DNA of 64,000 nucleotides, from the NCBI GenBank assembly GCA_028712175.1, contig JAQTQQ010000001.1:18677-82676 (forward strand). Reading direction: 5' to 3'. The first letter of the stretch is position 1. The number at the start of each line of letters is the position of its first letter. Both the position numbers and the translations under genes were made by a program. Below the pieces are notes generated by a model, which was not told where the DNA came from, ran no database searches, and worked only from the letters and a program-made list of their open reading frames with translations. Shown here one piece after another: positions 813 through 45,628 of this stretch. This stretch comes from Candidatus Omnitrophota bacterium (GTDB taxonomy: Bacteria > Omnitrophota > Gorgyraeia > Gygaellales > Profunditerraquicolaceae).

Positions 813-1514
813 TTATTTATTAAAGCGGAAGTTAACCAAATCCGCATCCTGCATTATGTAATCCTTTTGCTCAAGGCGCATCTTTCCTTGCTGCTTAGCT
901 TGCGTTTCCCCTCCGCAGGAAATAAAATTAGCGAAGCTTATAATTTCTGCACGGATAAAACCTTGCTGTATATCGGAATGGATTACCCCCGCACCTTCCC
1001 ATGCAGTTGTGCCTTGCTTGATTAACCAAGCGCGGTTCTCTTTATCTCCGACTGTCAGAAAAGTTATAAACCCGCTCTCTGATAAAACCCTGGCCAATAA
1101 AACCCCCATGTTCTCTAATTCTTCTTTGGTGATTACAACTACCGGCTTAAGAGTCAGCAGGCCGTAGCCGGAGATAACTTCCTTATCCTGCTCGGTCAAA
1201 ACTACTGAAGATATAAAATCTTCTTTTTCCAAGGATAGCTTCATTTTTTCTAGGATAATTTTTTCTTTATCGGGCGGTGATTTACTCAACCGTGTTTCTA
1301 CAAAATCCAAATCCCGGAGGATCAAATCTGTCTTAGAATCTTTGGGGATAATTATAACATCCGCTTCAACTGCGGCATTCTCACCTGCCAGTTCCACATG
1401 GGGATAGGTTTTTTTCTTGGATTTAACCAGCTTATCAGCTTGGTCAAGCTTATCATTTTTAACATTATGTTTTCCCAAAACAGCTTCAGGTATAGCAAAT
1501 GCGCTTATTTTCAT
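813..1514 (-). CDS. YchF-like protein lacking the N-terminal P-loop GTPase region. It retains the helical insertion and the C-terminal TGS/DUF933 domain.
   Basis: The C-terminus (GFITFLTVGDKENRAWLIKQGTTAWEGAGVIHSDIQQGFIRAEIISF...KDYIMQDADLVNFRF) closely matches the YchF TGS domain. DLDFVETRL matches the YchF helical domain. No G1 P-loop is present, and only 73 nt lie upstream before the next gene. Confidence 0.6.
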   Translation of the reverse strand: MKISAFAIPEAVLGKHNVKNDKLDQADKLVKSKKKTYPHVELAGENAAVEADVIIIPKDSKTDLILRDLDFVETRLSKSPPDKEKIILEKMKLSLEKEDFISSVVLTEQDKEVISGYGLLTLKPVVVITKEELENMGVLLARVLSESGFITFLTVGDKENRAWLIKQGTTAWEGAGVIHSDIQQGFIRAEIISFANFISCGGETQAKQQGKMRLEQKDYIMQDADLVNFRFNK

Positions 1515-1587
1515 AGGTAGTCTCTTAGAGGGCCTTTAGAATAGAGGCTTTATGCTTTCAAGCCTCTACAAAACAAATAATGAAAGA

Positions 1588-2775
1588 TTACTCCAGGTAG
1601 GTGTAAATCTTGCCCTTATAATTACGTAAAACATATTTACCCTTGGCCTGGGAAAGGATATAATTTGGCCCCACGGGGATTTTTCCGCCGCCGCCAGGCC
1701 CATCGATCACGTATGTCGGCACAGCATACCCCGAGGTATGCCCGCGCAGTTTTTCGATAATATTTATCCCGACTGCAACAGGTGTGCGAAAATGCTGCGT
1801 GCCCCTGACCGGATCGCATTGATAAATATAATATGGCCTTACCCTTATTTGCAGAAGGTCATGCACAAGGCGCCGCATAATAAACGGACGGTCATTGATG
1901 CCTTTAAGAAGCACCGACTGGCTGCCCAAAGGTATGCCTGACTCAGACAGCATATCGCAGGAATTTTTACAGCGCTTGGTAATTTCCTTGGGATGATTAA
2001 AATGAATACTCATCCAGATAGGAGAATATTTTTTCAACATGTTTACTAATTTTTCGGTAATACGCTGCGGCAAGGTTACCGGAATACGCGTACCTATTCT
2101 TAACAGTTCAACATGCGATATATCGCGGATCTTGGCAATTAAAGATTCCAGAGCTTCATCTTCCAGTGTAAGCGGGTCGCCTCCTGAAATCAACACATCC
2201 CTTATCTTTCGGTTGGATTTAATATACTCTATCGCCGCGTCAAATTTAGTTTCGGGGTTTGAATCTTTTTCCTCATGCTCACCCACTAAGCGCCTGCGCG
2301 TACAATGCCGGCAATACATAGCACAGTGATCCGTAGCTAACAGTAAAACCCTATCCGGATAACGGTGCACTAAATGCGGAGCCGGAGAATCGCGGTCTTC
2401 AGCGCAAGGGTCAGCCATCTCATGAGGAGAGATGGAAAACTCATAGTTAACCGGGACGGACTGCCTTCTTATCGGGCAATCGGGGTCATCAGCATCAATA
2501 AGGCTCGCCCAATAGGGAGTAATTGCCATCGCCAACCTGCCTTTTGCCTTATCTATCCCTTTCTCCTCTTCGGAAGTAAGCTTAATAATTTGGGCTAATT
2601 CTTCTTTAGTTCTAATCCTGTGCTTAAGCTGCCAATGCCAATCTTCCCAATCCAGCGGATTAACGTCTTTATAGAGAGGGATCTGCTGGTAGTCGCGTGA
2701 ACGCTTTGGCGGTTTCGGAATAGCCGGCGTTTCGATCTGCGCTTTTTGATTTTCTAAGCCTACAGGATTATTCAA
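1588..2775 (-). CDS. KamA-family radical SAM aminomutase (lysine or glutamate 2,3-aminomutase-like)
   Basis: 395 aa with a CAMYCRHC (CxxxCxxC) radical-SAM motif and a KamA-type N-terminus (WEDWHWQLKHRIRT). It also carries GGDPL and a C-terminal region typical of 2,3-aminomutases. Confidence 0.85.
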   Translation of the reverse strand: MNNPVGLENQKAQIETPAIPKPPKRSRDYQQIPLYKDVNPLDWEDWHWQLKHRIRTKEELAQIIKLTSEEEKGIDKAKGRLAMAITPYWASLIDADDPDCPIRRQSVPVNYEFSISPHEMADPCAEDRDSPAPHLVHRYPDRVLLLATDHCAMYCRHCTRRRLVGEHEEKDSNPETKFDAAIEYIKSNRKIRDVLISGGDPLTLEDEALESLIAKIRDISHVELLRIGTRIPVTLPQRITEKLVNMLKKYSPIWMSIHFNHPKEITKRCKNSCDMLSESGIPLGSQSVLLKGINDRPFIMRRLVHDLLQIRVRPYYIYQCDPVRGTQHFRTPVAVGINIIEKLRGHTSGYAVPTYVIDGPGGGGKIPVGPNYILSQAKGKYVLRNYKGKIYTYLE

Positions 2776-3773
2776 TTTAAGCCTTTCCTTTCTGAGGCAC
2801 TCATCAATATTGCCTCGATAAGATCTTCATATTTCATTCCGGCGGCATATGCCATTATGGGAAAATTAGATTCTTTAGGATCCAGCCCCGGTAAAGGGTT
2901 AATCTCCAAAACATACGGTATATTAAATTTATCCAAACGGATATCGGTGCGCGAAATATCAAGGCAGCCCACGGCACGGTGTGTACGCAAAGCCGCCTCT
3001 TTTACTATTGCCTCTGTTTTTTCATCGAGCCGGGCCGGGCAATAAAACTCCGGGACTAATCCTAATTCACTGTCCCCCTGAAACTCCTTCATTTTCCAGG
3101 AATAAAAATATTCTCCGCTTTTTTTGCAGCTAGAAAAATCTATTTCTAAAATCGGCAGTACCCTGGTTTTACCGTTTTCTAAAATTCCTACCGTCAGCTC
3201 CTTGCCTTCGATAAATTCCTCAACCAAAGCCTCCTGCCGGTAAACATCTATGCATTCTTTGACCTTTTGGAAAAGATCCTCTTTATTACTAACGACGTTT
3301 GCCTTATTGATGCCTTTTGCAGACCCCTCACAATTAGGCTTGACAATTAGAGGAAACTTTAGCTCTGCTGATAAAACTTCGTCCCCTCTTGTAAAAAGCT
3401 GGAAATTGGGGGTAGGAATATTTTCTGCTTTTAGTATTTTCTTGGTGAGCGCCTTGTTTAATGCCAGGGCAAGTGAAAAAGTATTTGAACCGGTATAAGG
3501 AATATTTAAATAATCCAGCACCGCGGGTACCTCGGATTCGCGGAAACGGCCGTGTTTTCCTTCGGCGATATTAAATACCATATCTACTGTATTTTTTCTA
3601 AAATACGAAAATAGGGCCGGATACTCCACGTCTATCGTATCCACGGAATGCCCCTTAGTTTTAAGCGCAGAGACTACGGAATTAATCGTTTCCTCCGAAT
3701 CACATTCAGAGAAATAATCCGCCGGTTTAAGCGGATCCTTCTTCTTTAAATTGTAAGTTAAGGCGACCTTCAC
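2772..3773 (-). CDS. D-alanine--D-alanine ligase family ATP-grasp enzyme (paralog 1)
   Basis: 333 aa with an ATP-grasp fold (PLIVKP, EEFIEGKELTVGIL, VLEINPLPGL, which is the E-x-N-x-PG motif of the Ddl family). It overlaps the KamA gene by 4 bp. Confidence 0.75.
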   Translation of the reverse strand: MKVALTYNLKKKDPLKPADYFSECDSEETINSVVSALKTKGHSVDTIDVEYPALFSYFRKNTVDMVFNIAEGKHGRFRESEVPAVLDYLNIPYTGSNTFSLALALNKALTKKILKAENIPTPNFQLFTRGDEVLSAELKFPLIVKPNCEGSAKGINKANVVSNKEDLFQKVKECIDVYRQEALVEEFIEGKELTVGILENGKTRVLPILEIDFSSCKKSGEYFYSWKMKEFQGDSELGLVPEFYCPARLDEKTEAIVKEAALRTHRAVGCLDISRTDIRLDKFNIPYVLEINPLPGLDPKESNFPIMAYAAGMKYEDLIEAILMSASERKGLN

Positions 3774-3790
3774 CCCGCACCTTCCTGTTC

Positions 3791-4780
3791 TTAACCCAGC
3801 CCGTTTCTTATGATGGCGCTGTTTAGGATCTTGCCCACAATTTGTTCGTAAGTGATGCCGATATTCTTGGCTACGAGCATAAAAACATCTTCGGTAGACA
3901 AAGACGGCAGCGGGTTAATTTCTAAAACATAAGGATTGCCGTCGTTATCAACACGGAAATCCACCCTGCCAAAATCACGGCACTCGACACTGCGATAAAC
4001 TTTTAAAGCCAGCTCATCCAGCTTTTTTTTCAGCTCTTGCGATATTTTAGCCGGGCAGATATATTCAAGCCTGTCGGAAGTGATCCTGGCAAAGGTATAA
4101 AATTTATCATTTAATTTCAGTTTTCCGTCTATCTTTATCTGGACGACCGGCATAATTTCTGGATTCTCATTTCCTACAATAGCTACCGTGAATTCCTGTC
4201 CGGAGATAAATTCTTCAACCAGGGCCGGCTGCTTATAGGCCGTGGTAATAAACTCAACTTGTTTTTTAAGCTCTTCGGTATTTTCCACGCGCGAGCTTTC
4301 TGTCAGGCCTTTAGACGAACCCTCAAACCGCGGCTTAACAATTAATGGGAATTTACAATGGTCTTGGTTAATCAGGGATTCAGCTGACGGAACTTCAAAA
4401 AACTTAGGGGTAGGAATTTTCTCGGCAATGAAAATCTTCTTAGCCATGACTTTATCCAGGGTCAACCCTAAGGTCAAAGCATCCGCGCCTACAAAAGGGA
4501 CCCCTGCCATCTCGAGTAAAATAGGGACCTGTGATTCGCGGTTCCTGCCGGCCAAACCCTCGGAGATATTAAAAACAATGTCTACGCCCAAGTTATCTAT
4601 CTTATCCAGCAAATTTAAGGCATTACCGATTTTTTTTACTTTAAAACCATTTGCAGCAATGGCATCGGCAATAACATTAATTGTTGAAGGGGCGTCAAAT
4701 TCCGCATTAGCATCAAGGGGATCTCCTTCTTTAAACTTATAATCTGTTTTTAAATCGTATGTTAAACCGACGGTTTTCAT
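3791..4780 (-). CDS. D-alanine--D-alanine ligase family ATP-grasp enzyme (paralog 2)
   Basis: 329 aa with the same architecture as its neighbour (PLIVKP, EEFISGQEFTVAIV, VLEINPLPSL). The two proteins share roughly 35-40% identity. Confidence 0.75.
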   Translation of the reverse strand: MKTVGLTYDLKTDYKFKEGDPLDANAEFDAPSTINVIADAIAANGFKVKKIGNALNLLDKIDNLGVDIVFNISEGLAGRNRESQVPILLEMAGVPFVGADALTLGLTLDKVMAKKIFIAEKIPTPKFFEVPSAESLINQDHCKFPLIVKPRFEGSSKGLTESSRVENTEELKKQVEFITTAYKQPALVEEFISGQEFTVAIVGNENPEIMPVVQIKIDGKLKLNDKFYTFARITSDRLEYICPAKISQELKKKLDELALKVYRSVECRDFGRVDFRVDNDGNPYVLEINPLPSLSTEDVFMLVAKNIGITYEQIVGKILNSAIIRNGLG

Positions 4781-4967
4781 CTTTTTGGCTTAAAAAATCC
4801 CCTCTATTTAAAAAAATAAGGGCCCGGTTTATTGCTTTTGCCTTGAGCCCTTAAGAATCTATCCAATTTTTTCCAACTCCGTTTATTAACCTCCAAAAGT
4901 TTGTGCAAAATCTTGTATTTATGCTCTTTTTTTACCACAATATATTGGCATTGTCAAGTATTTTTTC

Positions 4968-5624
4968 TTAAAAATAACGTTCTTGATTCCTACTTTTCCC
5001 GTCGGAAAAAGTAATTCCTGCGCTTTCCAAGTTATGCATTAATTGTGCAAAATCAACGAAGACACAACCCCTTATGCCAAGAGAACCGGCGGACTCTACT
5101 AATTCTTTCCGGTCATCGGTATAAAATACCTCTTTGGGGCTAACTTTGAGCTCCTGAATTACCTTTTTATAGATTTCTATATCAGGCTTAATCATCCCAA
5201 GCTCAAAAGAGAGAAAAATTTTGTCAAAAACCCCAAACACAGGAAAACTTTTTTTTAAATATTCATAATGCAGCGCGTTTATGTTAGATAAAAGGGCTGT
5301 TTTATAACAGGGGCGCAAATCATTGACCAACCTGTAAACGGAACGGTTTTTTGGGCTTAAGAAAAATATATCATTCCATATCGGGGCAAATGAATTAAAG
5401 CTTAGCTGCAGATCCAGCATGTTCTTTACTTCAAGATAAAAATCTTCCGGAGAAATCTTACCGGCCTCAAAGGCAACTGTCGCAGGGGATTCAAAAAAAA
5501 GGTTATATATCTGGCGCGGTGTTTTCGAACAAAAAGCAGATATTCTTTCTGCCGCCCTTTGGTGGTCAAAATCTACCAACACACGGCCTAAATCAAATAG
5601 GATAACTTTTATCCCATTCGGCAT
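4968..5624 (-). CDS. HAD-superfamily hydrolase (subfamily IA-like)
   Basis: The N-terminal VILFDLGRVLVDFD matches HAD motif I (DxG/DxD), and the size of about 218 aa fits. Confidence 0.65.
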   Translation of the reverse strand: MPNGIKVILFDLGRVLVDFDHQRAAERISAFCSKTPRQIYNLFFESPATVAFEAGKISPEDFYLEVKNMLDLQLSFNSFAPIWNDIFFLSPKNRSVYRLVNDLRPCYKTALLSNINALHYEYLKKSFPVFGVFDKIFLSFELGMIKPDIEIYKKVIQELKVSPKEVFYTDDRKELVESAGSLGIRGCVFVDFAQLMHNLESAGITFSDGKSRNQERYF

Positions 5625-5626
5625 GA

Positions 5627-6640
5627 TTAATTTCCCTTATCCTTATTTTTCCTGAAAAGGTCCAGGAACCTGTCTTCATATTCTTTATAAACATTCCACT
5701 TGTCCAGTTCTGCCTTTAATCCGTTTGCCTTGGTAATGTTAATGCGGCTCTCCTCAAAAAGCTTTTCAATTTTTTCTTTTATGGAGACGGGTAATTTTGT
5801 AAGCTGGCTCAAGGTTTTCTTAATTAACTCCACCTCTTCCTCCCCAATGGGCGCAGACTGGCCCCCGCTGCCAAGCTTCAAATATTCCAATAATTTATTG
5901 ATCTCATTTTCCATCGACTGCGCCTGTTCCATTAATGGCTGTAAATTTATTTGTATATTCAATATTTGGCCCAAGGCCTGTAGCACGGCCGCGGATGCTT
6001 TAGGATTCTCGATCTGAATGGTATAAAGGGGGATGTCTCCAAGCAGACAAAAGCCTTTTAACCCGGCAAGCTTGGCCAGCCCTAAAAACAAACCGTTCAT
6101 TCCGCTGATTTGCCCTTCTTGTAAAACATTAAAGTTAAATTTCTTTAAGCCTTCTTTTATTTTTTGATCAGTCGCGGCCAGCCAAACTGCAGGTTTTTGG
6201 GTATGATCGGTTGCTTGCGGCATAGAGGCGAAACTCACCACTAACTCTGCCCCCAGATCCTTGGCTAACCCGATAATGATTTTGGCATAGCTGTCCGCTT
6301 TGGCTAAATCCGGCTGGGCATTGCTTAAGAAAATTATCAGGTCGTGCACAGCCGGCTTAGCACCAAGGCTGTTTGCGCTTACTGCGCGTTTTGACGCCGG
6401 GTTCTTCCAGTAATAAAATTTTCCCTGCGGAAGCAACGGCACCTCTAGTATGCCAGATGAGATAACGCTCCCGGTTGAATAGAAAAATTCACCAGGTGCA
6501 ATCTCTGCAAATTCCTGAGCCTTTAATTCGTTAATTAAATAATTCGCCGCATTAGCTGCCACATCCCCCATCCCCGGCCAGGCGACTATAAGGTAAGGCG
6601 ACCTCAAGCGCGGTTTCTTAGAGATTATCAATGGTCCCAT
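5627..6640 (-). CDS. PAC2-family protein (proteasome-assembly-chaperone-2-like, COG1938)
   Basis: LIVAWPGMGDVAANAANYL is an N-terminal PAC2-like signature. The coiled-coil C-terminal tail also fits the family. Confidence 0.55.
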   Translation of the reverse strand: MGPLIISKKPRLRSPYLIVAWPGMGDVAANAANYLINELKAQEFAEIAPGEFFYSTGSVISSGILEVPLLPQGKFYYWKNPASKRAVSANSLGAKPAVHDLIIFLSNAQPDLAKADSYAKIIIGLAKDLGAELVVSFASMPQATDHTQKPAVWLAATDQKIKEGLKKFNFNVLQEGQISGMNGLFLGLAKLAGLKGFCLLGDIPLYTIQIENPKASAAVLQALGQILNIQINLQPLMEQAQSMENEINKLLEYLKLGSGGQSAPIGEEEVELIKKTLSQLTKLPVSIKEKIEKLFEESRINITKANGLKAELDKWNVYKEYEDRFLDLFRKNKDKGN

Positions 6641-6659
6641 TTCTTCTCCCTTTATTATG

Positions 6660-7790
6660 CTAATTAATAAATTGATATGTTTTTAAAAATTCTTCTAAAA
6701 CTCTTGCGCCGTTATATAAATTTTCTAAAGATGCATATTCGTCAGCGATATGCGCACAGCCTTCCGTGCCGAATCCTGTAGCAATTGCAGGTATCCCCAT
6801 GCTTTTAAAAAAAGTTATTACCGTTGCGCCTTCCGAACCGCTGATACGCGGCTTAATCTCCAGACTTCTAAAAGCGGAAACCAAGCTGTTTACTAAAGGG
6901 TGCCGCGGATCAATATAATATGGCTCCTGGAGACCCTGGATTTCAATTTTAAAATTATCGGTATATTTAGCAATTACCTTTCTTAGAAAATTTAGGAGTT
7001 CTTTTGCATTTTGACCGGGGAGGAACCTAAAATCTAGTTCGAATTCACACCAGTCGCTGACTACATTAACTTTGTCCCCTCCTTTAATCGTACCGATATT
7101 TATCGTAGGATTTTTAAGGTATTTATTTTTAGGATGCCTTTGATGTTGTTTTTTAAGTTCAACAATCACCTTAGCCGCCAGATCAATTGCATTGACCCCT
7201 AACCAAGGATAAGCGCCGTGTGCTTTTTTTCCGGCAATTTTGACCTTAAGATGCATCAGCCCTTTTTGGGTAATTACAATCTCAAATTCGTCGGCATCCA
7301 GAACAACCGCGGCATCCGCTTTTAAAATTTTCCGCCTTAAGAGGGGGATTAAACCTAACCCTGAACCGCTTTCTTCATCAGCAGTAGCCGCAAGAACCAG
7401 GTTATAATCAAGATTAACACCGTCTTCAACTATGGAATTAACCGCTTCTAATGCACAGGCCAGATTTCCCTTACAATCGGTTGCCCCCAAGCCATAAATC
7501 CGGTTGCCGATAATTTTGGCGCAAAAAGGATCAGTCTTCCAATTGACTCCTGCCGGCACAGTATCTAGGTGCGGCGTAATCAAAAGCGATTTATTCGGCC
7601 TGCGGCTTTTAAGAATTGCAATAACGTTTTCTCTTTTACTGCTAAAGGCATATGTTTTAACTTTAACACCCAGGCCCTTTAAATATGAACTCACAAAAAG
7701 AGCAATCCTGCTTTCATTGCTTCCGGGATTCTGAGAATCAATGGAAATCAATCTTTTAATAGTTTCTATCAAACGTTTCTTATTGACCAT
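6660..7790 (-). CDS. M20-family metallo-amidohydrolase (ArgE/DapE-like)
   Basis: 376 aa with HLDTVP, GATDCKG and a dimerisation lid in the centre, which is typical of acetylornithine deacetylase/succinyl-DAP desuccinylase. Confidence 0.75.
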   Translation of the reverse strand: MVNKKRLIETIKRLISIDSQNPGSNESRIALFVSSYLKGLGVKVKTYAFSSKRENVIAILKSRRPNKSLLITPHLDTVPAGVNWKTDPFCAKIIGNRIYGLGATDCKGNLACALEAVNSIVEDGVNLDYNLVLAATADEESGSGLGLIPLLRRKILKADAAVVLDADEFEIVITQKGLMHLKVKIAGKKAHGAYPWLGVNAIDLAAKVIVELKKQHQRHPKNKYLKNPTINIGTIKGGDKVNVVSDWCEFELDFRFLPGQNAKELLNFLRKVIAKYTDNFKIEIQGLQEPYYIDPRHPLVNSLVSAFRSLEIKPRISGSEGATVITFFKSMGIPAIATGFGTEGCAHIADEYASLENLYNGARVLEEFLKTYQFIN

Positions 7791-8418
7791 TTAAAGGACA
7801 GGCCTCGCATTTAGGGCTACGCTTATGGCAATACTCCTTGCCCAGCTTTACCAAAAGGGCGTGGTATTCATTAAATAACCCTGCATTATTTTTAAGGTTT
7901 TTCATAAAAACCTCCTGCACGCTGAAATAATCTGCTCCTGCCTTAATTAACTTATGGCGCAAAAGTATTCTTTTTGTGTATGCATCTACAACAAATATGG
8001 GTTTATTTAAAGCATATAGTAAAATGGAATCCGCGGTTTCTTGGCCGATGCCGTTTACCCCCAGCAATTGCCGGCGCAAAGTTCCCAAATCAACGGAGGA
8101 AATCTTTTCAAGGCTCAAAGAATAATTATCAAAGAAGAATTTAAGAAAATTCTTAAGCCGCGCGGCCTTAATATTATAATAACCGGCAGGCCTAATCAAA
8201 CCGGATAGCTTCTTGGAAGGCAATTTATAAATCTTTTCAGCATCTAGCAGTTTTTTCTTTTTTAAAGATGCTATTGCTTTTTCTACATTAGACCAGCTGG
8301 TGTTTTGAGTAAGGATTGCCCCGACCATTACCTCAAAAGCGCTCTGCGCAGGCCACCAATACTGCCGGCCGAAGGCAGAATAAAGGCGACGAAAAATACG
8401 GCTTAGCTTGCGTTTCAT
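7780..8418 (-). CDS. Endonuclease III-like HhH-GPD base-excision glycosylase domain protein
   Basis: GAILTQNTSWSNVEKAI, LGVNGIGQETADSILLYAL (HhH-GPD) and a C-terminal CHKRSPKCEACP fragment of a 4Fe-4S loop that appears to lack the fourth Cys. Confidence 0.65.
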   Translation of the reverse strand: MKRKLSRIFRRLYSAFGRQYWWPAQSAFEVMVGAILTQNTSWSNVEKAIASLKKKKLLDAEKIYKLPSKKLSGLIRPAGYYNIKAARLKNFLKFFFDNYSLSLEKISSVDLGTLRRQLLGVNGIGQETADSILLYALNKPIFVVDAYTKRILLRHKLIKAGADYFSVQEVFMKNLKNNAGLFNEYHALLVKLGKEYCHKRSPKCEACPLNGQ

Positions 8419-10352
8419 TCTTTCAGCTCTAACGGATTAAAACCATAATAAGCAAACAGGGCATACACTGTGCCAGAAACTGACCCCGTATGCTTGCCCT
8501 TTGGGGTCATCCAGCCATGCCCTGTATCTACATGATCGCTGGTTGCGTAAGGAAGGCAGCCTTGGCCCTGCCCCGAAGGCGAAGAGCTGGAGATGATCAT
8601 ATTGCCCAGCTGGCTTAAATACATCTCTGATTTTTTCTTATATTTATCCGCATTGGCCAAATTGCCTTTTTTGGCATAAAAATCTTCCATGATCTTATAC
8701 GATACGATCATCTGCGCGGTCCACTCCGAAGAAACAACTCCACCTCTTGCAACATGGCGGCTGGGCGCGAAATCAAAACCTTTTATTTTTACAACTTGAT
8801 TATTCGCACGCAGGAAATTCGCTTCAACACTGCAATTATCCTCAACAAATTCCAGAATTTTATCCGGATCCATTCCTAACTCCAGCAGCTTTTGCGGGCC
8901 GATGGCGGCAATTGACCAGGCATAAGTATCTGTAGCTATAGTAGAATCCCCTTTTCCGCGCTTGACCGGTAAATCCTTGCGGTCATAGGTATTCTTGACA
9001 ATCCAATTAATAACCTTTTCAGCAGCATTGGAATATTGCCTATCTTGCGTAACTTTAGCCAGCATATTGAAAAACGCATAAGCATCAAGATTGTGTTCGG
9101 TAGAATACCACTCAACCGCCGGGCCGCCGCGAATGCCTCCATCGAAATCTTTGTCTTGCATTTGCATAATCACAGAGGCAATACTTTTGGCTAAAGCCAA
9201 ATAACTGTTATCTTGAGTTTTTTGCATATACTGCATAATAGCAATGCCTAACCAGATATTCGGGCCGCTATGCATTATGAATTCCGCCGGTCCGCCATCG
9301 TCGACATAATAAGCATTAAGAAACCATCCGTTTTCTCTTTTGGCGTTATGAGCAAAAAAACCCAGTATCTTCTGTGCGCGGTTATAATCTCCAAATTGCG
9401 TATAAGCCTGGACAAGCAGCGCTAAATCATAAGTAAATGACCAGTTAGCGATCTCTTTATCGCCCTCAAAACTCATCACCAATCCCGTACGGCTGTTTTG
9501 ATGAATTTTAAGCCATTGATACATCTTGTCAAAATTAGCTTTTTCTAGTATTTCCTTTTTCTCATGCAGCTCAGACAACTCTTTGGCAACTTTAGTCTCG
9601 CTGATTAAAACAACGGCCAGCTGGCTTTCTAAAATTGCTTTCTCTTTTGTTAAATCGGAAATCAGGTCATTCAGCTGGTTAACACGGTTTAAATTACCTG
9701 TTTCTATCTGCGCTTTTTGCGACTCAATAGATTTAATGCGTTCCTCTAATATTCTCAACTTTGACTGGAAATTTTGGCGCTCGGCAGTGACCTTTTCAAT
9801 TTTTTGCCGGGCGAGCGTGGAATCTTTCAAAACTAAGGCCAGCTTTTCTACGAGCAGCTTATTACCGCTAGTTAGCTTAATATTTATATAGCTGTTAATA
9901 CCCAAAACTAAAACCAAGATTACTACGAGCGATGAAACTACCGGGACAAAAAGTTTCCTGAACCAGGCATAGCGCATTAATTTACTATTTTGATTTGCAG
10001 ATATCTGTTCATAATTTAACCCGATTAAATATTTGCGCTTATCGCCTCCGACATCCTGAACCCAAACAAAGCTGGCCCGGGCAGCAATAGGTTTATTGCT
10101 GATTGGAATATCAATCTCTAAGGATAGTTTGAATTTTCTCTCATCGAGCAGTTTGAGCAATTGCGGATCAGGATTATTTATACAAAGACATAGGCCTCCC
10201 GGGCCCACATTATTAGTAAACCCCTGCAGCCAGTTTGAAAGAAGGGTTTTTCCGTCTGGCGTTTCGAGGCGGAACTGCACCGGGAATACCGTATCTAGAC
10301 GCAAATACTTTCTTTGTTCCGGTTGCTGCTTTTTCTTGTCCTTTAAGCCCAT
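8415..10352 (-). CDS. PilZ-domain (c-di-GMP receptor-like) membrane protein with a coiled coil and a C-terminal (alpha/alpha)6 six-hairpin-glycosidase-like domain
   Basis: N-terminal RKYLRLD...NNVGPGGL matches the PilZ RxxxR / DxSxxG motifs. A TM helix (LFVPVVSSLVVILVLVLGI) is followed by about 120 aa of heptad-rich coiled coil. The Trp/Tyr-rich C-terminal domain (GWFLNAYYVDDGG...NIWLGIAIMQYM) looks like an alpha-toroid glycosidase. The fold of this last domain is my inference. Confidence 0.5.
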   Translation of the reverse strand: MGLKDKKKQQPEQRKYLRLDTVFPVQFRLETPDGKTLLSNWLQGFTNNVGPGGLCLCINNPDPQLLKLLDERKFKLSLEIDIPISNKPIAARASFVWVQDVGGDKRKYLIGLNYEQISANQNSKLMRYAWFRKLFVPVVSSLVVILVLVLGINSYINIKLTSGNKLLVEKLALVLKDSTLARQKIEKVTAERQNFQSKLRILEERIKSIESQKAQIETGNLNRVNQLNDLISDLTKEKAILESQLAVVLISETKVAKELSELHEKKEILEKANFDKMYQWLKIHQNSRTGLVMSFEGDKEIANWSFTYDLALLVQAYTQFGDYNRAQKILGFFAHNAKRENGWFLNAYYVDDGGPAEFIMHSGPNIWLGIAIMQYMQKTQDNSYLALAKSIASVIMQMQDKDFDGGIRGGPAVEWYSTEHNLDAYAFFNMLAKVTQDRQYSNAAEKVINWIVKNTYDRKDLPVKRGKGDSTIATDTYAWSIAAIGPQKLLELGMDPDKILEFVEDNCSVEANFLRANNQVVKIKGFDFAPSRHVARGGVVSSEWTAQMIVSYKIMEDFYAKKGNLANADKYKKKSEMYLSQLGNMIISSSSPSGQGQGCLPYATSDHVDTGHGWMTPKGKHTGSVSGTVYALFAYYGFNPLELKE

Positions 10353-10606: not shown

Positions 10607-11197
10607 TCAAATTTTTGGTTTGAAAGCAAAGAGGTTAGAGAAACTAGCAAGGTCGGCAATTCCTTTTTCCTGGCAGAGTGCTTTAAGTTTGGTAAAAACC
10701 TCCCATGTCATCTCTACGTCGGCCAAAGCCCTGTGCTGCTGTACAGTTCTAATTTCCAGTTTCTGGGCGACAAACCAAAGGGGGTAACGCGCAAGCCCGG
10801 GCAACAGCTTCCTGGCCATGGTAAGAACGTCCAATACCAAGATATTATTAATTGCCGGCAAACCGATCAGTTTAAGTTCATTATTTAAAAAGCTCATGTC
10901 AAATTCAGCATTATATGAACACAGGCAGCTGCCTTTGGTAAAATCTAAGAATTTTGGCATTACCGCACCTATCTCCGGAACACCTTTAAGCATTTCAGGA
11001 GTAATTTTATTTACGGAAAATGCGCCCGCTGAAATGGCCCTGCCCGGATTAATCAGTTCATCGAATACAGCTATCCTCTCTTTGGCCCTGACCTTTAAAG
11101 CCGCCAGTTCAACCATGCGGTCACCTTCCTCCGGCTTTAACCCGGTAGTCTCGGTATCAAATATAGTAATTTCTATTTCATCAATGTTTTCAGGCAT
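10607..11197 (-). CDS. DEDDh 3'-5' exonuclease (DnaQ/epsilon-like)
   Basis: FDTETTG (Exo I), CSYNAEFDMSFL (Exo II) and HRALADV (Exo III). Confidence 0.75.
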   Translation of the reverse strand: MPENIDEIEITIFDTETTGLKPEEGDRMVELAALKVRAKERIAVFDELINPGRAISAGAFSVNKITPEMLKGVPEIGAVMPKFLDFTKGSCLCSYNAEFDMSFLNNELKLIGLPAINNILVLDVLTMARKLLPGLARYPLWFVAQKLEIRTVQQHRALADVEMTWEVFTKLKALCQEKGIADLASFSNLFAFKPKI

Positions 11198-12080
11198 CTC
11201 TGGTTACGATATAAGCCGGGGCCAATTGAACCGGTTTGTATGAAAGTTTTGTTTTACGTAAATTCTCTAAACCCGAATCATCCATAATATTAATATATTT
11301 ATAGCCTTTAAGCTCCTGTGCAAATTTGCGAAAGATAAATTGCGCAAGGCCCTTAAGGGAAAGGTCGGTTATCTCATAAAGTATGCAAAAAGTATCTTTG
11401 TTCAATTTATAACCGAAGCTAAATGCCTTGATTTTTTTATCCACCCTGATGAGAATACCCTCTAAATGCAGCTGCCCATAGTTAGCTAGGGCGTCTTTGA
11501 GCACCCGGCGGCTGTCCTCAAGCATGCCTCGGTAAACATCGTCGCTGCAGCAAAGCCTGCGCTCTGCCGCCCAGAGATTAAACAAATCCAATATTCCTGC
11601 CTTATCCGCTGGGCGCAAAGAACGCCAATCAAAATCATAATGTTTTACAAAATAATTATGGGAGGCGCGCTGCGATTTAAACCTGTTTCCTTTAAGGCTG
11701 GCTAAATCCTCCCTTAAACAGAGATAATCCGGATACTTTTCATGACAAAGATACCCTAGGGCGCGATAATACTCTAAATCGCTTTGCGGGATATTTTCAA
11801 TACGCGAGATATCCTTATTCTTATTACATTTATCCATAATCGCAAACGCCGCTCTTATCGCCTCGGGGTTAGGTTCTTTTGCCAGAGGAGGCAAATACAT
11901 AAAAGAGCCTATCTTATCTCTAAAAAATACACAAAGGCTATTTTTGATTATTTCCCACCTAATTTCATAAAGTGAGCGCCAAATAAAAATATTGGCAAAA
12001 GAAAATGGCGCAAGGCTATGCTCTAACATAGCCAGATACCTATTAAATAGATTCCGGTCTTTTAAGGTTAATTTCCGCAA
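11190..12080 (-). CDS. DUF2156-like protein (GNAT-fold, resembles the C-terminal lysyl-transferase domain of MprF)
   Basis: FSFANIFIWR near the N-terminus and a size of about 300 aa. The assignment rests on memory of the family pattern. Confidence 0.4.
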   Translation of the reverse strand: MRKLTLKDRNLFNRYLAMLEHSLAPFSFANIFIWRSLYEIRWEIIKNSLCVFFRDKIGSFMYLPPLAKEPNPEAIRAAFAIMDKCNKNKDISRIENIPQSDLEYYRALGYLCHEKYPDYLCLREDLASLKGNRFKSQRASHNYFVKHYDFDWRSLRPADKAGILDLFNLWAAERRLCCSDDVYRGMLEDSRRVLKDALANYGQLHLEGILIRVDKKIKAFSFGYKLNKDTFCILYEITDLSLKGLAQFIFRKFAQELKGYKYINIMDDSGLENLRKTKLSYKPVQLAPAYIVTRDA

Positions 12081-12555
12081 CTTCCCTTACCTCTTCGTAC
12101 GCTTGAATAATCTGGGGGTTACTCTTAAGAATATTTAGTTGTTTTGGTGTATTAAGGTAATCCGTCAAATAAGCAATATAATCTTTTGCCTGGATGCTGT
12201 TTATATTTTCATGAACATACGGGCAATTTAAATCAACCGTCAGGAGCACCTTCCCTTTGCGGAGGTTAATGAGAAACGGATACAGTTGGCATTCAAATGG
12301 CCGGATTTGATAAATTTTACAGTTGTTGTCTTGGGCCCCTAAATACGGGCAAACAAAATATGCGCCATCATGGCTGGCTACGGGTGTAATACGGCGGTTA
12401 ATAGAAATCGAGGCAACAGGAATATCTGATCGGTCCAATAACCCCTGGATCTCTTCATCCAGGAGACAGGGGCTCCAAACGGAATCTGCCTCTTTAAAGC
12501 GGCAGCAGCCTTTACATTCTATACAAAATTCCGAAGGGACAAACTGTTTGATCAT
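12043..12555 (-). CDS. YkgJ-family cysteine-cluster protein (UPF0153)
   Basis: CIECKGCC (CxxCxxCC) plus later CPYL...C, CQLYPF and CPY motifs. Confidence 0.6.
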   Translation of the reverse strand: MIKQFVPSEFCIECKGCCRFKEADSVWSPCLLDEEIQGLLDRSDIPVASISINRRITPVASHDGAYFVCPYLGAQDNNCKIYQIRPFECQLYPFLINLRKGKVLLTVDLNCPYVHENINSIQAKDYIAYLTDYLNTPKQLNILKSNPQIIQAYEEVREVAEINLKRPESI

Positions 12556-17280: not shown

Positions 17281-17359
17281 TGGCGGGGCCGACGAGATTC
17301 GGACTCGCGATCTCCTCCGTGACAGGGAGGCGCTTTAAACCAGGCTAAGCTACGACCCC
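17281..17359 (-). tRNA. tRNA-Asp (GTC), CCA encoded
   Basis: The reverse complement is GGGGTCGTAGCTTAGCCTGG...CCTCC-CTGTCAC-GGAGG...GCGAG-TCCGAAT-CTCGT-CGGCCCC-G-CCA, a full cloverleaf with anticodon GUC. Confidence 0.8.
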
Positions 17360-17532
17360 ATTATTAGACTATGGTCTATAGACTATAGACGATAAAACCA
17401 TGGGTTTATATATTGTAAACAAATTTCAAAGAATTGCAAACTATTTATTCTTAAAAACTCGCATTACAGCGATCAATGATTCTATAGACCATTGTCTATA
17501 GACTTTCGACTCTGAAGTTTTGATGAAAACAA

Positions 17533-17606
17533 TGGGCGATAGAGGACTTGAACCCCTGACCCTCTGAATGTAAATCAGATGCTCTAACCAACTGAGCTAA
17601 TCGCCC
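17533..17606 (-). tRNA. tRNA-Val (TAC)
   Basis: The reverse complement is GGGCGAT-TA-GCTC-AGTTGGTTA-GAGC-A-TCTGA-TTTACAT-TCAGA-GGGTC-AGGGG-TTCAAGT-CCTCT-ATCGCCC-A. Confidence 0.8.
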
Positions 17607-17835: not shown

Positions 17836-18291
17836 TTATCCGGTAAGTTTTCCCAAAAGGCCTAAGGAAAACGCCATGACAAACAACGCTACTGTTTCTA
17901 TAATCCCCAAAATAACGAGGTAGTTTCCAAAACCCCTGCCTGTTTCACCCATAGCATCGGCAGCGCAAGCACCCGCTTTGCCCTGCATCAGGGCAGAAAA
18001 GCCCATAGCTAAACCGCAGAACAAACCTACATCCCAGGCATAGACTCCTTTAGCTACCGCTTCAGCCATCTTGTTCATAAGAATCATCCCGTAAATAGTC
18101 TGAGTAAGCGGCGCACCGACAAAGACCAGAAGCATAAAGGATGCCGGCTTATTCTGAATAAAAGCTTTTTTCCATGCCCCTACTACTGCCATACCTGCTA
18201 TTCCCGCGCCAAGCCCAGAGCCTACAGCGGCTAAACCCAATGCCGCAGCTGCCCCTAAATCTTTAAACTGCACAATTAACCCTGCATCCAT
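17836..18291 (-). CDS. ntpK: V/A-type ATPase proteolipid subunit K (duplicated c-hairpin)
   Basis: 151 aa, Gly/Ala-rich, with four TM helices in two repeats carrying conserved GxGxGxA motifs. Confidence 0.8.
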   Translation of the reverse strand: MDAGLIVQFKDLGAAAALGLAAVGSGLGAGIAGMAVVGAWKKAFIQNKPASFMLLVFVGAPLTQTIYGMILMNKMAEAVAKGVYAWDVGLFCGLAMGFSALMQGKAGACAADAMGETGRGFGNYLVILGIIETVALFVMAFSLGLLGKLTG

Positions 18292-18314
18292 ATAGCAACT
18301 CCTTTTTTTAAATG

Positions 18315-20084
18315 TTACTTCTCGGTAAGCGGTTTGTAACTAAAGCCGCTCCATTTTATATCAAGATGGCTGCAAAACTCAAGCACATTTAACCTAACCC
18401 CGTGGACAAGAATAGATAGCGGACCAAGTATTATATTCAGTGTGTGCCCGACTAAAAGTATAAGAGAAGTTAGCAAGCCAGCTGTAAAATTAGCAAAACC
18501 AATATCCATCGCCATCTTATTAAAAGCATCCGCCACAGCCAAAGTTGCAAGGCCGACGGCAAAAAGGCGTATATAAGAAACTACGTCGGTAAAATTATTC
18601 ATAATGTTAAGCGCCAAAGCACCTAAGCCGCTAGCGAAACCCTTAAGGATATTTTTTTGAGGGCAGGTGAAAAAAACAACTAAGGTTGACCCGGCAATAA
18701 TCAGATACGGATAAAATACCGGCAAGGTATCTCCTAAGATAAGAAGCTTGGCTATAAAAAACGTAAACCACAATATGCATATCCAGCCAATGTCTGCTAA
18801 AAAAGACAGCGCGGGAAACTTCAATAAAGCCCTCCAGATGTGGGCGATACTTAAATGCAAAGCCCCTAAAAAGAAACAGAAGTTCTGTATGTTTTTATCG
18901 CTGCGCAAAGCAGGCAAAACCGGTTTTACCCAAGCAGGCAGCCATTCCTGGCCAAAGAAACTGGCGGTCAAAATTCCCCAAATTATAGCGCAGCTGCTTA
19001 AAATATACAAAAGGACAAAAGCTGACTTATCGCTTATGCCTTTGCCCCATTTTTTATGTATAATCAGGGTAAGTAAAAAGTATACGGCGCCATATCCTGC
19101 ATCTCCGATCAAAATACCGAAAAATATTGAAAAAAAGATAAGGAACCAGAGGCTTATATCGAGCTCCCTATACCCGGGAATAACTTCAATTATTTTAAAT
19201 ACCGGATTAATTATGCCCAGCCATTTTGGGTTACGCACTAATGTAGGCACATTATCGCTTTCCAATGGTTCGGTTATCAATAATCCCCAGCCCTGCGCCT
19301 TTGCTGCTTCTTTAATAGAATTTTCGGAATCAAAGGGAATGTAGCCTTTAATATATAAAAGACCCTCTTGTTGTTGGGCCATTCCTGAAAGCGCCTCGTA
19401 AAATTCAACTTCTTTCATCATCTGCGCGCGGGTATCTTTTAAATAATATAGATATACAAACTCTCTTAACAACTCTTCTTTTATTAAGCCTGCGATTTTC
19501 TTGTCCTCAATAAGCCTCCTTTGCATCATGCTTAAAGAAATCTTCGGCATTTCTGTCTCTTTAAACGGAAGATTAAAATTTTTATCTGCTATAATAGCAC
19601 AATTGTAAATATTCCCCTGTCTGCTTATTTTCTTCAGGTAAATATCTTTAGGCAGGCTTTTTATCTGTTCGTCAGAAAGTTTATATAAACGAATATAAAT
19701 ACCTTTTAGGCTGAGCCGGGCGGCCTCCTGAGGATCAAAATCACCCCACCCAACGTATCTATCAATACCTGAGGAAAGAGTTACCGAATACTCCTTGAGC
19801 TGCTGAAAACGTTTATTTAAATCAATGATATGTTGCGCCAATGGGCGCCAGGCTGGCATGCGTTTGGCCTGCGGGCGAGATACGGAATTCTTTCCTTCAG
19901 ACTCTAACAAAGCAATTGCCTGATTAAGCAAGAAAAGGTCGTTATGCAAAACAGCGAGCTTATCCCCTTTAGGCGGAATTACATGCTCTACATGCAAAAC
20001 CCCGAGCTTACGGACTCCCTTGAGCAAAAACTCGGCGTCCTTTCCTTGCACGACCAGGAAAATTTTTTTCATCGCTACAATCAT
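18315..20084 (-). CDS. ntpI: V/A-type ATPase subunit I (a-subunit)
   Basis: 589 aa with a soluble N-terminal half and a C-terminal polytopic membrane half ending ...LSILVHGVRLNVLEF. Confidence 0.85.
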   Translation of the reverse strand: MIVAMKKIFLVVQGKDAEFLLKGVRKLGVLHVEHVIPPKGDKLAVLHNDLFLLNQAIALLESEGKNSVSRPQAKRMPAWRPLAQHIIDLNKRFQQLKEYSVTLSSGIDRYVGWGDFDPQEAARLSLKGIYIRLYKLSDEQIKSLPKDIYLKKISRQGNIYNCAIIADKNFNLPFKETEMPKISLSMMQRRLIEDKKIAGLIKEELLREFVYLYYLKDTRAQMMKEVEFYEALSGMAQQQEGLLYIKGYIPFDSENSIKEAAKAQGWGLLITEPLESDNVPTLVRNPKWLGIINPVFKIIEVIPGYRELDISLWFLIFFSIFFGILIGDAGYGAVYFLLTLIIHKKWGKGISDKSAFVLLYILSSCAIIWGILTASFFGQEWLPAWVKPVLPALRSDKNIQNFCFFLGALHLSIAHIWRALLKFPALSFLADIGWICILWFTFFIAKLLILGDTLPVFYPYLIIAGSTLVVFFTCPQKNILKGFASGLGALALNIMNNFTDVVSYIRLFAVGLATLAVADAFNKMAMDIGFANFTAGLLTSLILLVGHTLNIILGPLSILVHGVRLNVLEFCSHLDIKWSGFSYKPLTEK

Positions 20085-20698
20085 ACGAGAGCTTCCTCAA
20101 AATATAACTCTTCTATTTTTCTTTTTGCAATCTTGCTGCGCCCTACGGCGTTAGCCATCTGATCCCCAATATAGATCTTAATCAGGCGGATATTCTCTTC
20201 TGCTTCCGGGATCTTTATTTTTTCAAAAAGATTGACCCTTTGTGTAGTAATACGCAGTTCATGCCGCAGGGCCAAAACGGCTTCTTCGGCCACTAAAATT
20301 GCTTTATTCAAAATAATGGCCTCTTTAAAGGCTTCGATTGCTAAATCCAGCCACAGCGGAGTAGTAAACAAATCGTAGGCTTTTTCTTCAAACTCCACTG
20401 TATCAAACACGGGGATATCGCAGCCGGCGATATTTTTAATGTGGCTAATTATTGTTTTTATCTTTAAAAATAACTTGATGTCGACTTGCGGGTCAGTAAG
20501 CAAACCTATCCAAAGGTTAATTGCCTGTCGTTTTTTAGCTAACACTTGTTGTTTTTCTTTGAGCGCCGAATTTTGCTGCAGGATCTCAAGCTGTAACTGC
20601 TGTTTCTTTAGCTGCAGAGTCGGGAGATAGCGCTTATACTGCTTTAACGCGTCACGTTGCCTTTTTAATTCTCCTTTGGTAAGTTTTATCTTTGCCAT
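20081..20698 (-). CDS. ntpD: V/A-type ATPase subunit D
   Basis: It starts LTKGELKRQRDALK, a long coiled-coil central stalk. Confidence 0.8.
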   Translation of the reverse strand: MAKIKLTKGELKRQRDALKQYKRYLPTLQLKKQQLQLEILQQNSALKEKQQVLAKKRQAINLWIGLLTDPQVDIKLFLKIKTIISHIKNIAGCDIPVFDTVEFEEKAYDLFTTPLWLDLAIEAFKEAIILNKAILVAEEAVLALRHELRITTQRVNLFEKIKIPEAEENIRLIKIYIGDQMANAVGRSKIAKRKIEELYFEEALV

Positions 20699-23783: not shown

Positions 23784-23785
23784 AA

Positions 23786-24316
23786 TTAATTTCGTACCGT
23801 TGCGTTAAACAAACTTTCCTTATCCGCTGATTGAATTTTGTCCCAACGTTCCATGATTTTAAGCTTTAAAGCATAAACCAATAAAGAATCAAAGTCAAAA
23901 TAATGGCTGGTATTTAAAGACTCCAGAAAATTCCATCTCTCTAGGTCCAAAATCTTTTCTGCGTCCAGCACTGATGTGCTTCGATAAGCAGACATTGCCA
24001 CATGGCTAATATGCGCATCTGGCCAATCCGGAAGGCGAACAAACGCTAAGGGGTCAATTTTCTTTCTATGCGCCCTTGCACGGATCAATTCATTTCTCAG
24101 GGCTATCTCAAAATTAGCCCATTTGCCTAAAGTGTGACCTGAAGCGGCTTGCAATAAATGGGGTTCCCGTTGACAAGCAGCACGCAAAAGATCAATCTTT
24201 TCTTCCGGGACCAAGCCCTTACATTTAGCAAAGAAATCCTCTAAGCTAAATGGCAGCTTAGAGGAAAAGCTAAGCATCGGAAGGCTGGAAATAAAATATG
24301 TATAATAAGCGCCCAT
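23786..24316 (-). CDS. Uncharacterised protein conserved between V-ATPase E and A genes (as in Chlamydia, Treponema and Borrelia operons)
   Basis: The position in the operon is the main evidence. The sequence has no recognisable motif. Confidence 0.4.
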   Translation of the reverse strand: MGAYYTYFISSLPMLSFSSKLPFSLEDFFAKCKGLVPEEKIDLLRAACQREPHLLQAASGHTLGKWANFEIALRNELIRARAHRKKIDPLAFVRLPDWPDAHISHVAMSAYRSTSVLDAEKILDLERWNFLESLNTSHYFDFDSLLVYALKLKIMERWDKIQSADKESLFNATVRN

Positions 24317-30382: not shown

Positions 30383-30455
30383 ATGCGCCTGGACAGAATC
30401 GAACTGTCACCACTAGCTTCGGAGGCTAGTGCGCTATCCGTTGCGCTACAGGCGC
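30383..30455 (-). tRNA. tRNA-Arg (CCG)
   Basis: The reverse complement is GCGCCTG-TA-GCGC-AACGGATA-GCGC-A-CTAGC-CTCCGAA-GCTAG-TGGT-GACAG-TTCGATT-CTGTC-CAGGCGC-A. The plus-strand ORF at 30383-30676 is spurious. Confidence 0.75.
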
Positions 30456-43529: not shown

Positions 43530-43670
43530 TTTCTAATCTCCTTCTATTTATAATTATATAAGATCTTAAATCAGTAATAGACGTAAAGGGCCCCCAAAAC
43601 TGTTAACAAGAACTTAAAATCTTAAAACGACAACAGTTACGTAAATATACAGCGGTTAATAACCTGGGCA

Positions 43671-45623: not shown

Positions 45624-45628
45624 AATCT

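Follow-up and report, generated by a model that had tools for sequence, protein, structure and literature searches.

The stretch of DNA analysed here, 64,000 nucleotides of a Candidatus Omnitrophota bacterium (contig JAQTQQ010000001.1; hereafter the window), raises the question of why a gene for a KamA-family aminomutase lies directly behind two tandem genes for ATP-grasp ligases related to D-alanine-D-alanine ligase (Ddl), and what the three enzymes make together. In the direction of transcription, on the minus strand, the genes are AGb (positions 3791–4780, 329 aa) and AGa (2772–3773, 333 aa), both Ddl-fold ATP-grasp ligases with Pfam Dala_Dala_lig_C matches of 6e-41 and 9e-36, respectively, and KamA (1588–2775, 395 aa, TTG start), a predicted lysine 2,3-aminomutase of the radical S-adenosylmethionine (SAM) and pyridoxal phosphate (PLP) type. 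Our reading is that this module most likely builds a small beta-lysine-containing peptide by ATP-dependent assembly, and we put the probability of this at roughly 0.6.

A scan of species-representative genomes confirmed 467 stretches with relatives of AGa (tblastn), and gene order within the phylum was compared in the best 80 of these 467 stretches (73–92% identity). Nearly all 80 loci are labelled Omnitrophota; several are called "uncultured Planctomycetales" and one has a Margulisiibacteriota title. In every one of the 74 loci that hold all three genes, AGb, AGa, and KamA are contiguous and in identical order, with AGb directly upstream of AGa and median gaps inside the trio of 6 nt and −1 nt. 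The median identity to the window proteins is 82–83% for the trio versus 58–67% for each flanking gene, and near-identical proteins occur in Omnitrophota metagenome-assembled genomes (MAGs).

The association extends well beyond this phylum. A full-library search with AGa gave about 1,100 representatives (50% identity) at E < 1e-30; among its best 150 relatives, 44 are ligase::ligase fusions and 3 are KamA::ligase fusions. A search with one of the latter brought the KamA::ligase fusions to 37 distinct clusters at 90% identity, with named sources including a Deltaproteobacteria MAG, Candidatus Magnetoovum (Nitrospirota), an archaeon, and an Omnitrophota MAG. A metagenome scan was seeded with five single-domain family members that were not picked for linkage to KamA; it yielded 80 loci, nine of them Omnitrophota-like, and 22 of the others could be evaluated (at least 3 kb on each side of the ligases). 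KamA lies less than 1.5 kb away in 19 of these 22, and the complete ligase-ligase-GNAT-KamA set is present in 12.

Because the trio is contiguous in all 74 Omnitrophota loci and the fusions recur in other phyla, the ligase-ligase-KamA arrangement is not due to chance. The invariant synteny, the 37 fusion clusters, the ligase::ligase fusions (44/150), and the metagenome loci (19/22) together show that KamA and the ligases are functionally coupled. The co-occurrence test proposed in a preliminary description of this locus thus comes out in favour of its core idea, that the product of the aminomutase is ligated by two ATP-grasp enzymes: the fusions, the invariant adjacency, and the metagenome loci all speak for it.

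The same description had assigned the aminomutase to the radical-SAM enzymes of the KamA family, and rightly so, given the retained CxxxCxxC motif and a score of 530.0 bits with the lysine 2,3-aminomutase model TIGR03820. This is a narrow pass (cut-off 525.4), and the protein ends at position 360 of the 417 positions of the model. KamA is 58% identical to the lysine 2,3-aminomutase of Clostridium subterminale (PDB 2A5H) over 364 aligned positions. In this alignment, it retains the equivalents of the cluster cysteines C125/C129/C132 and the carboxylate-binding R134 (CAMYCRHCTRRR), of the PLP lysine K337 (YVIDGPGGGGK), and of the two residues that bind the epsilon-ammonium group of lysine, D293 (YQCD) and D330 (VIDGP). 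The lysine-binding Asp residues are also retained in every KamA::ligase fusion caught by motif patterns.

Profile models separate the types of KamA enzyme as had been suggested: the lysine model is passed, and the glutamate, arginine, and EpmB models fail. Glutamate 2,3-aminomutase was rejected as the identity of KamA (TIGR04368, 476 versus a cut-off of 650; both Asp retained), as were an arginine aminomutase with a beta-arginine product (419 versus a cut-off of 600; lysine-binding Asp pair retained) and EpmB (TIGR03821, 254 versus a cut-off of 369.3). Glutamate 2,3-aminomutases carry Lys/Asn in place of the two lysine-binding Asp residues, a residue rule said to originate with Ruzicka and Frey in 2007. 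Since the D293/D330 equivalents are kept and the glutamate model stays below its cut-off, the product of KamA is, as judged from these residues, beta-lysine and not beta-glutamate, which had been considered as an alternative. Genes for epmA and efp are absent among the genes immediately adjacent, the rest of the window having only been sampled, with no search aimed at them.

The two ligases are paralogues, about 40% identical to each other, and with their Dala_Dala_lig_C matches they are the tandem Ddl-type ATP-grasp pair that had been described. One explanation of such a pair would be that AGa and AGb are the housekeeping D-Ala-D-Ala ligases of the organism and stand next to KamA by coincidence. 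Their nearest characterised relatives by both sequence and fold are indeed Ddl enzymes: the closest solved structures are Ddl enzymes with about 25–30% identity, and the AlphaFold model (AF2) of AGa (predicted local distance difference test score, pLDDT, 92) has a template modelling (TM) score of 0.81 to P. aeruginosa DdlB at 29% identity. Some sources annotate the ligases as D-alanine-D-alanine ligase, and no third ddl-like gene occurs in the 64-kb window. On the other side, all curated Ddl, VanA, and D-Ala-D-Ser models stay below their cut-offs for both proteins; the best Ddl-model scores are 204 for AGa and 188 for AGb versus a cut-off of 243 (NF002378), and the TIGR01205 Ddl model reaches 164 versus 246. 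The genes also lie outside any mur/fts cluster, and the fusions to KamA span several phyla and archaea.

With E. coli DdlB numbering, a provisional DdlB reference sequence, and an uncertain alignment in the omega loop, the nucleotide, Mg, and catalytic residues (equivalents of K97, K144, E180, E187, R255, D257, E270, and N272) are retained in both ligases. At the substrate-site positions, His63 is replaced by Glu in both. AGb has Ile for Tyr216, Val for Leu282, and Asp for Ser281; AGa retains Ser281 but has Asn for Leu282 and, according to which alignment is used, Phe or Glu for Tyr216. The K215/Y216/S281/L282 equivalents of AGb thus read R/I/D/V, so that Y216 and L282 are lost in both ligases and K215 and S281 in AGb as well. 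The family can be recognised by an N-terminal E-x-D motif where DdlB has Glu15, by an Arg that replaces Met259 invariantly, and by R-E where DdlB has E68-D69. A substrate carrying two ammonium groups would be well matched by the additional acidic residues.

As the ligases keep the ATP, Mg, and catalytic residues and the Ddl fold, yet fall below the Ddl cut-offs and have lost the Ddl specificity residues, we predict from sequence and model that AGa and AGb are active enzymes other than Ddl. In a rough neighbour-joining tree, the whole family is set apart from E. coli DdlB by a long branch. Taken with the missed cut-offs, the changed substrate-site residues, and the KamA fusions, this makes a housekeeping Ddl pair beside KamA by coincidence very unlikely. 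In the same rough tree, one clade ("AG1") contains all KamA-fused ligases and, in different subclades, both ligases of the window; a second clade ("AG2") is formed by the second ligase of GNAT-containing modules. By best-hit scores, AGa and AGb could not be paired cleanly as orthologues with the two ligases found elsewhere.

Outside the phylum, ligase-ligase-GNAT-KamA is the usual layout of the module. The preliminary description had its KamA and its two ligases right and overlooked the GNAT of this commonest form. The fused versions vary around the same theme: KamA::ligase accompanied by two ligases (L087), by a ligase and a GNAT (L088), by a ligase::GNAT fusion (L084), or by a single ligase (L094). 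In another Omnitrophota lineage (L092), KamA::ligase, ligase, and GNAT are joined by a weak RimK-like protein, and in an archaeal context (L093), an unknown gene stands between the second ligase and the GNAT. A probably archaeal locus (L091, 8001–12830) has KamA::ligase overlapping a diaminopimelate-decarboxylase-like gene and a 448-aa protein without a family match; its decarboxylase-like partner hints at a decarboxylated, polyamine-like product in that lineage.

In a further variant (L089, L090), a PaaK-like adenylating enzyme accompanies ligase::KamA and a cyanophycinase-like S51 peptidase, which is fused or adjacent. This combination of a PaaK/F390-synthetase-like enzyme, ligase::KamA, and S51 was observed in L089 (6682–10835), L090 (1024–5196), L119, and L164; in L089, the S51 domain is fused into a single 944-aa protein. 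Double ligases without KamA, either fused in tandem or paired and with an S58 peptidase (DmpA/BapA family, beta-aminopeptidase) directly after them, form a distinct conserved pairing seen in L081 (8001–11432), L138, L150, and L154. The family also has members away from KamA: an archaeal ligase singleton (L085) has none, and of the rhizobial plasmid homologues, which are 32–37% identical, the one checked (pNGR234a) has no KamA nearby.

At least one carrier is in culture. On plasmid pTHIMO01 of the purple sulfur bacterium Thioflavicoccus mobilis 8321 (NC_019941.1, 6691–12172; L176), a ligase of the family adjoins a lysine-type KamA that is 46% identical to KamA of the window. The same cluster encodes a diaminobutyrate (DABA) transaminase and SbnA/SbnB-like 2,3-diaminopropionate synthesis genes, so that three diamino-acid-forming enzymes are found side by side with the ligase.

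With the L084, L088, L092, and L093 GNATs as queries, neither the window nor any of the 80 related loci gave a homologue of a module GNAT; likewise, none of the S51, S58, PaaK-like ligase, or decarboxylase partners occurs in the window or these 80 Omnitrophota loci. Since a module GNAT is missing and both ligases belong to the AG1 clade, the window holds a GNAT-less variant of the broader module with two AG1-type ligases. Clustering of 789 flanking open reading frames (ORFs) of non-Omnitrophota modules gave nothing recurrent beyond the PaaK-like enzyme, S51, and local synteny.

These partners bear on the nature of the product. Because S51 peptidases are fused or adjacent to the ligase in L089, L090, L119, and L164 and S58 peptidases follow the double ligases, the product is probably a hydrolysable peptide. 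One could go further and suppose a cationic beta-lysine oligomer or polymer, either a cyanophycin-like storage compound or a streptothricin-like bioactive peptide that the GNAT caps or protects. Streptothricin acetyltransferases are small GNATs that act on the amine of beta-lysine, and small GNATs adjoin most non-Omnitrophota modules; the cyanophycinase-family S51 partner of ligase::KamA and the three diamino-acid-forming enzymes of the Thioflavicoccus cluster point the same way. The trio, however, lies among housekeeping genes near oriC in small genomes, no conserved exporter or immunity gene stands beside the module, and the presence of two different ligases is more in keeping with two set steps than with repeated rounds of polymerisation. 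None of the seven proteins encoded at the locus matched a PADLOC model (E ≤ 0.001), which also speaks against a bioactive peptide or polymer. On balance, we regard such an oligomer or polymer as unlikely. Membership of the locus in an anti-phage defence system was rejected, there being no PADLOC match at that threshold.

The trio has a regulatory region of its own, which occupies positions 4810–4957 (minus strand) in the gap upstream of AGb and was defined by reading the sequence and by its conservation across loci. It begins with TTGACA (4957–4952), followed after 17 nt by an extended −10 element, TGTGGTAAAAAA, with the −10 hexamer at 4934–4929; an inverted repeat, ATATTGTG..ACAAGAT (4943–4910), flanks the −10. 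Downstream are GGAGG (4894–4890, minus strand) and a conserved box, TAA(A/G)TTG(G/A)AAAAA, which opens a mini-ORF, TTG GAA AAA ATT GGA TAG (4876–4859; M-E-K-I-G). A GC-rich hairpin (4852–4818) with a T-run (4816–4810) ends the region about 30 nt ahead of the AGb start codon. In the window, these motifs occur only once.

Most of the 74 aligned loci keep the element ahead of AGb regardless of the gene that precedes it, and for this reason we assign it to the trio. RNAalifold supports no consensus structure other than the hairpin, in which 3 of 7 pairs show compensatory changes. The first codons of the mini-ORF are kept (M-E/K-K) and its length varies from 2 to 26 codons; a conserved leader peptide was rejected, the length not being kept. 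A known riboswitch in the gap was rejected as well, since Rfam gave no match for it at the gathering threshold or at E ≤ 10 and RNAalifold shows only the terminator hairpin, giving no sign of a structured aptamer. Because there is no room in the window for another promoter between the terminator and AGb, transcription of the trio must read through this terminator. The element is an attenuator or a small independent transcript, and it may be a new attenuator or small RNA.

This region also determines how the locus as a whole is to be viewed. Seven minus-strand ORFs are present at 813–7790, as had been described, and Pfam and NCBIfam searches confirm the families named for them. The close packing reported for all seven (gaps of 0–20 nt or 4-bp overlaps) is borne out at four of six junctions, with a 4-bp overlap of KamA and AGa and gaps of 17 nt between AGa and AGb, 2 nt between the HAD and PAC2 genes, and 19 nt between the PAC2 and M20 genes. 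The other two junctions are wide: KamA is separated from the YchF-like gene by 73 nt, and AGb from the HAD gene by 187 nt. Since the conserved promoter, leader, and intrinsic terminator lie within the 187-nt gap, a single uniform operon of all seven genes can be dismissed. The unit that can be demonstrated is AGb-AGa-KamA, and we treat the other four genes as its neighbours.

Upstream of the trio lie, all on the minus strand, genes for a HAD-IA hydrolase (4968–5624; Pfam Hydrolase/HAD_2, no NCBIfam equivalog at cut-off), a PAC2-family protein with a C-terminal helical extension (5627–6640; Pfam PAC2, 3.5e-37), and an M20 deacylase of the ArgE/DapE family (6660–7790; TIGR01910, 266 versus a cut-off of 217.6). 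The closest solved structures are acetylornithine deacetylase and DapE for the M20 protein and, for the PAC2 protein, Rv2125 and the PAC2-family proteins 3VR0 and PbaA of Pyrococcus. The three genes were observed to move as a block across Omnitrophota genomes, independently of the trio. Forty-nine loci extend 8.5 kb or more beyond AGb on its upstream side; among these, the HAD gene is less than 500 bp from AGb in 17; the block lies 0.5–3 kb away behind inserted genes in 19 (the HAD gene in 15, PAC2 only in 4) and more than 3 kb away in 2, and it is absent within 8.5 kb in 11. In L042, for example, the HAD gene and AGb are kept apart by two insertions, a 245-aa ORF and an AIR-synthase-related gene.

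The block was never found beside the module in the loci examined outside this Omnitrophota clade. With so variable a distance in the clade and no such linkage outside it, we no longer count the HAD and PAC2 genes as members of the system, as the preliminary description had done. By analogy, the M20 enzyme is a plausible candidate accessory that might hydrolyse the product, because other lineages carry S51 or S58 peptidases beside or fused to the ligases.

Downstream of KamA, the remaining gene (813–1514, minus strand), counted earlier without being named, encodes a YchF-like protein of 233 aa that matches Pfam YchF-GTPase_C over residues 150–232 only (3e-33) and scores 125 versus a cut-off of 279 with TIGR00092. 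By eye, its N-terminus has no P-loop; the gene is kept downstream of KamA. It is less than 300 bp from KamA in 14 of 46 loci and 0.3–2.5 kb away in 28. Its membership in the unit is not supported. In L042 (12228–14183), a gene for a 651-aa elongation factor G (EF-G) paralogue lies between KamA and the YchF-like gene, and most related genomes have a gap of similar size there.

Such neighbours give some weight to a different idea, namely that the ligases load beta-lysine onto a protein, for instance onto a translation factor as in the beta-lysylation of elongation factor P (EF-P), or onto a LysW-type carrier, so that no free metabolite is made. RimK and LysX are examples of ATP-grasp enzymes that modify proteins; the conservation of the trio is unusually high, and an EF-G paralogue and a YchF-like gene follow KamA in many Omnitrophota genomes. 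Furthermore, L092 (7287–7472) encodes, about 530 nt upstream of the KamA::ligase fusion, a LysW-like zinc-ribbon protein of 61 aa whose C-terminal tail is acidic (Pfam 29.4 versus a cut-off of 27). Neither the window nor any other locus fetched has a homologue of it, and a LysW-like carrier was rejected as a part of the module on account of this single occurrence. The ligases themselves are Ddl-like rather than RimK/LysX-like, with RimK Pfam scores at or under the threshold; KamA falls well short of the EpmB model, the module is present in archaea too, and peptidase and GNAT partners suit a small molecule better. Modification of a protein or carrier therefore appears improbable to us.

The pathway that we propose for a small beta-lysine peptide would proceed as follows. 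The trio would be transcribed from its own promoter and leader, and KamA, by homology, would turn free L-lysine into (3S)-beta-lysine. Each ligase would then use ATP to form an acyl-phosphate and from it an amide bond, and both together would place beta-lysine in a small peptide or pseudopeptide. Because it is the AG1 type that is repeatedly fused to KamA, one AG1-type ligase would take beta-lysine directly, and the second would add a further residue. The last step is the one we advance most cautiously: the product would most likely be a small solute of the cytoplasm, cationic or zwitterionic, for example an osmolyte or a compound resembling a polyamine, turned over by dedicated peptidases, possibly M20 here and S51 or S58 elsewhere. 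A small solute is suggested by the recurring peptidases, the GNAT partners, and the lack of conserved exporters. N-epsilon-acetyl-beta-lysine, made by AblA/AblB, and the acetylated dipeptide N-acetylglutaminylglutamine amide (NAGGN) are known osmolytes (PMC1224877).

It should be noted that several points weigh against this pathway. The product is a proposal and the substrate of each ligase a prediction from sequence, and both the order of the steps and the choice of the ligase that would use beta-lysine are drawn from fusion partners and the rough neighbour-joining tree. The high conservation of the trio in a lineage with reduced genomes would also fit an essential macromolecular target, and the EF-G paralogue, the YchF-like neighbour, and the LysW-like protein of L092 hint at modification of a protein or carrier. 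Clustering of the flanking ORFs revealed no conserved transporter or osmoregulatory gene beside the module. Finally, the inventory of ddl genes covers the 64-kb window only.

The surroundings of the trio are core chromosome. The window appears to span the replication origin, with dnaA (43671–45017), dnaN, gyrB, and gyrA on one side of it and yidC on the other, the GC skew changing sign at about 45 kb; the trio is about 40 kb from the origin. In the origin-like region as we delimit it (42438–47158), yidC reads on the plus strand, opposite to the minus-strand genes dnaA, dnaN, gyrB, and gyrA. Pyrimidine-synthesis genes, glmS, trkH, and tRNA synthetases are also encoded in the window.

Other features observed in the window are a V/A-type ATPase operon (17836–24316, minus strand; subunits I, A, and B recognised) in place of an F-type ATPase, a 6S RNA (61973–62132, plus strand; 69.8 bits), and seven tRNA genes (17284–17606, 30384–30455, 37171–37245, and 51900–52382). 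A gene for a 645-aa protein (8415–10352, minus strand) with an N-terminal PilZ domain, a coiled coil, and a weak GH76-like C-terminal region adjoins an endonuclease III-like gene and is kept with it in related genomes. At 11190–12555 (minus strand), the gene for a stand-alone LPG_synthase_C (DUF2156) protein precedes one for a CxxCxxCC (PF03692) protein; in L093 (12488–13574), a CxxCxxCC protein is encoded directly after the GNAT of the archaeal KamA-ligase module, which may be coincidence.

The enzymes of the module come from well-known families, and the pathway and its product are apparently undescribed and phylogenetically widespread. The view that no pathway with such a gene content has been described agrees with our full-text literature search, which found no system of an aminomutase with ATP-grasp enzymes in a scope that did not extend to the ATP-grasp amidoligase survey of Iyer et al. 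(2009). Most carrier lineages are uncultured, and some have very small genomes, where the genes retained tend to matter. To our knowledge, the roles of free beta-lysine are those of the osmolyte N-epsilon-acetyl-beta-lysine, the modification of EF-P, lysine fermentation, and some actinomycete antibiotics. The coupling of KamA to ligases, which includes recurring gene fusions in Omnitrophota, Nitrospirota, Deltaproteobacteria, and archaea, is a pointer to a further metabolite derived from beta-lysine, one that is not known to have been sought.

A bolder version, to which we would give slightly less than even odds, is that the trio represents a widespread, undescribed beta-lysine pathway in hundreds of uncultured bacterial and archaeal lineages and at least one cultured bacterium. 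Its product would belong to a metabolite class of its own: a di- or tripeptide containing beta-lysine, or else a short cationic oligomer, with N-acetylation in lineages that have the GNAT. This metabolite would serve as a new osmolyte or polyamine surrogate, and in Omnitrophota the pathway would be controlled by a novel attenuator composed of a leader peptide and a terminator. If true, this would provide a function for many proteins annotated as "D-alanine-D-alanine ligase" or "ATP-grasp domain-containing protein", of which the search with AGa collected the approximately 1,100 representatives mentioned above.

Comparison with known systems shows which parts of the module are familiar. With the Ddl/VanA ligases, AGa and AGb share the fold, the ATP, Mg, and catalytic residues, and presumably the acyl-phosphate mechanism; they differ in the missed cut-offs, in the changed specificity residues, and in being linked or fused to KamA and not to mur genes. 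In the EpmB/EpmA system, too, a KamA-family enzyme feeds beta-lysine to an ATP-dependent ligase, but the KamA of the window is not an EpmB by its score, and its ligases are ATP-grasp enzymes, whereas EpmA is LysRS-like. The yodT-kamA operon of Bacillus subtilis, which we take to contain genes for KamA, the GNAT YodP, the M20 enzyme YodQ, an aminotransferase, and a coenzyme A (CoA)-transferase, resembles the window in encoding KamA close to an ArgE/DapE-type M20 enzyme; it has no ATP-grasp ligases, and its GNAT, aminotransferase, and CoA-transferase genes are absent here.

Carnosine synthase is an ATP-grasp ligase for beta-alanine, and carnosinase is an M20 dipeptidase that hydrolyses a beta-aminoacyl dipeptide. 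The window likewise pairs ATP-grasp ligases with an M20 enzyme; its ligases, however, belong to another ATP-grasp clade and would act on another beta-amino acid, there are two of them, and the M20 link is not conserved. The synthesis of NAGGN depends on Ngg, which combines a GNAT with an ATP-grasp enzyme, and on AsnO. The same two activities meet in the ligase::GNAT fusion of the module in L084, but the substrates of the NAGGN enzymes are alpha-amino acids, no aminomutase takes part, and the variant in the window is without a GNAT. The product of that pathway is an osmolyte (PMC1224877). Cyanophycin synthetase and cyanophycinase resemble the module of some lineages in that non-ribosomal amide formation by an ATP-grasp enzyme is accompanied by an S51 peptidase; the module of the window has neither a Mur-ligase-like domain nor S51.

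The AblA/AblB system of methanogens (PMC1224877) differs in the way in which beta-lysine is derivatised. In searches with the module GNATs, the window and the 80 related loci gave no AblB or other GNAT, and derivatisation would fall to the two ATP-grasp ligases; the GNATs of the module elsewhere are small (152–186 aa), and one that was tested is RimI-like, with TIGR03827 (AblB) not among its matches. What the two systems have in common is that a lysine 2,3-aminomutase of the TIGR03820 family starts the pathway and that its gene adjoins the gene of a beta-lysine-derivatising enzyme, with a GNAT forming part of the module in other lineages.

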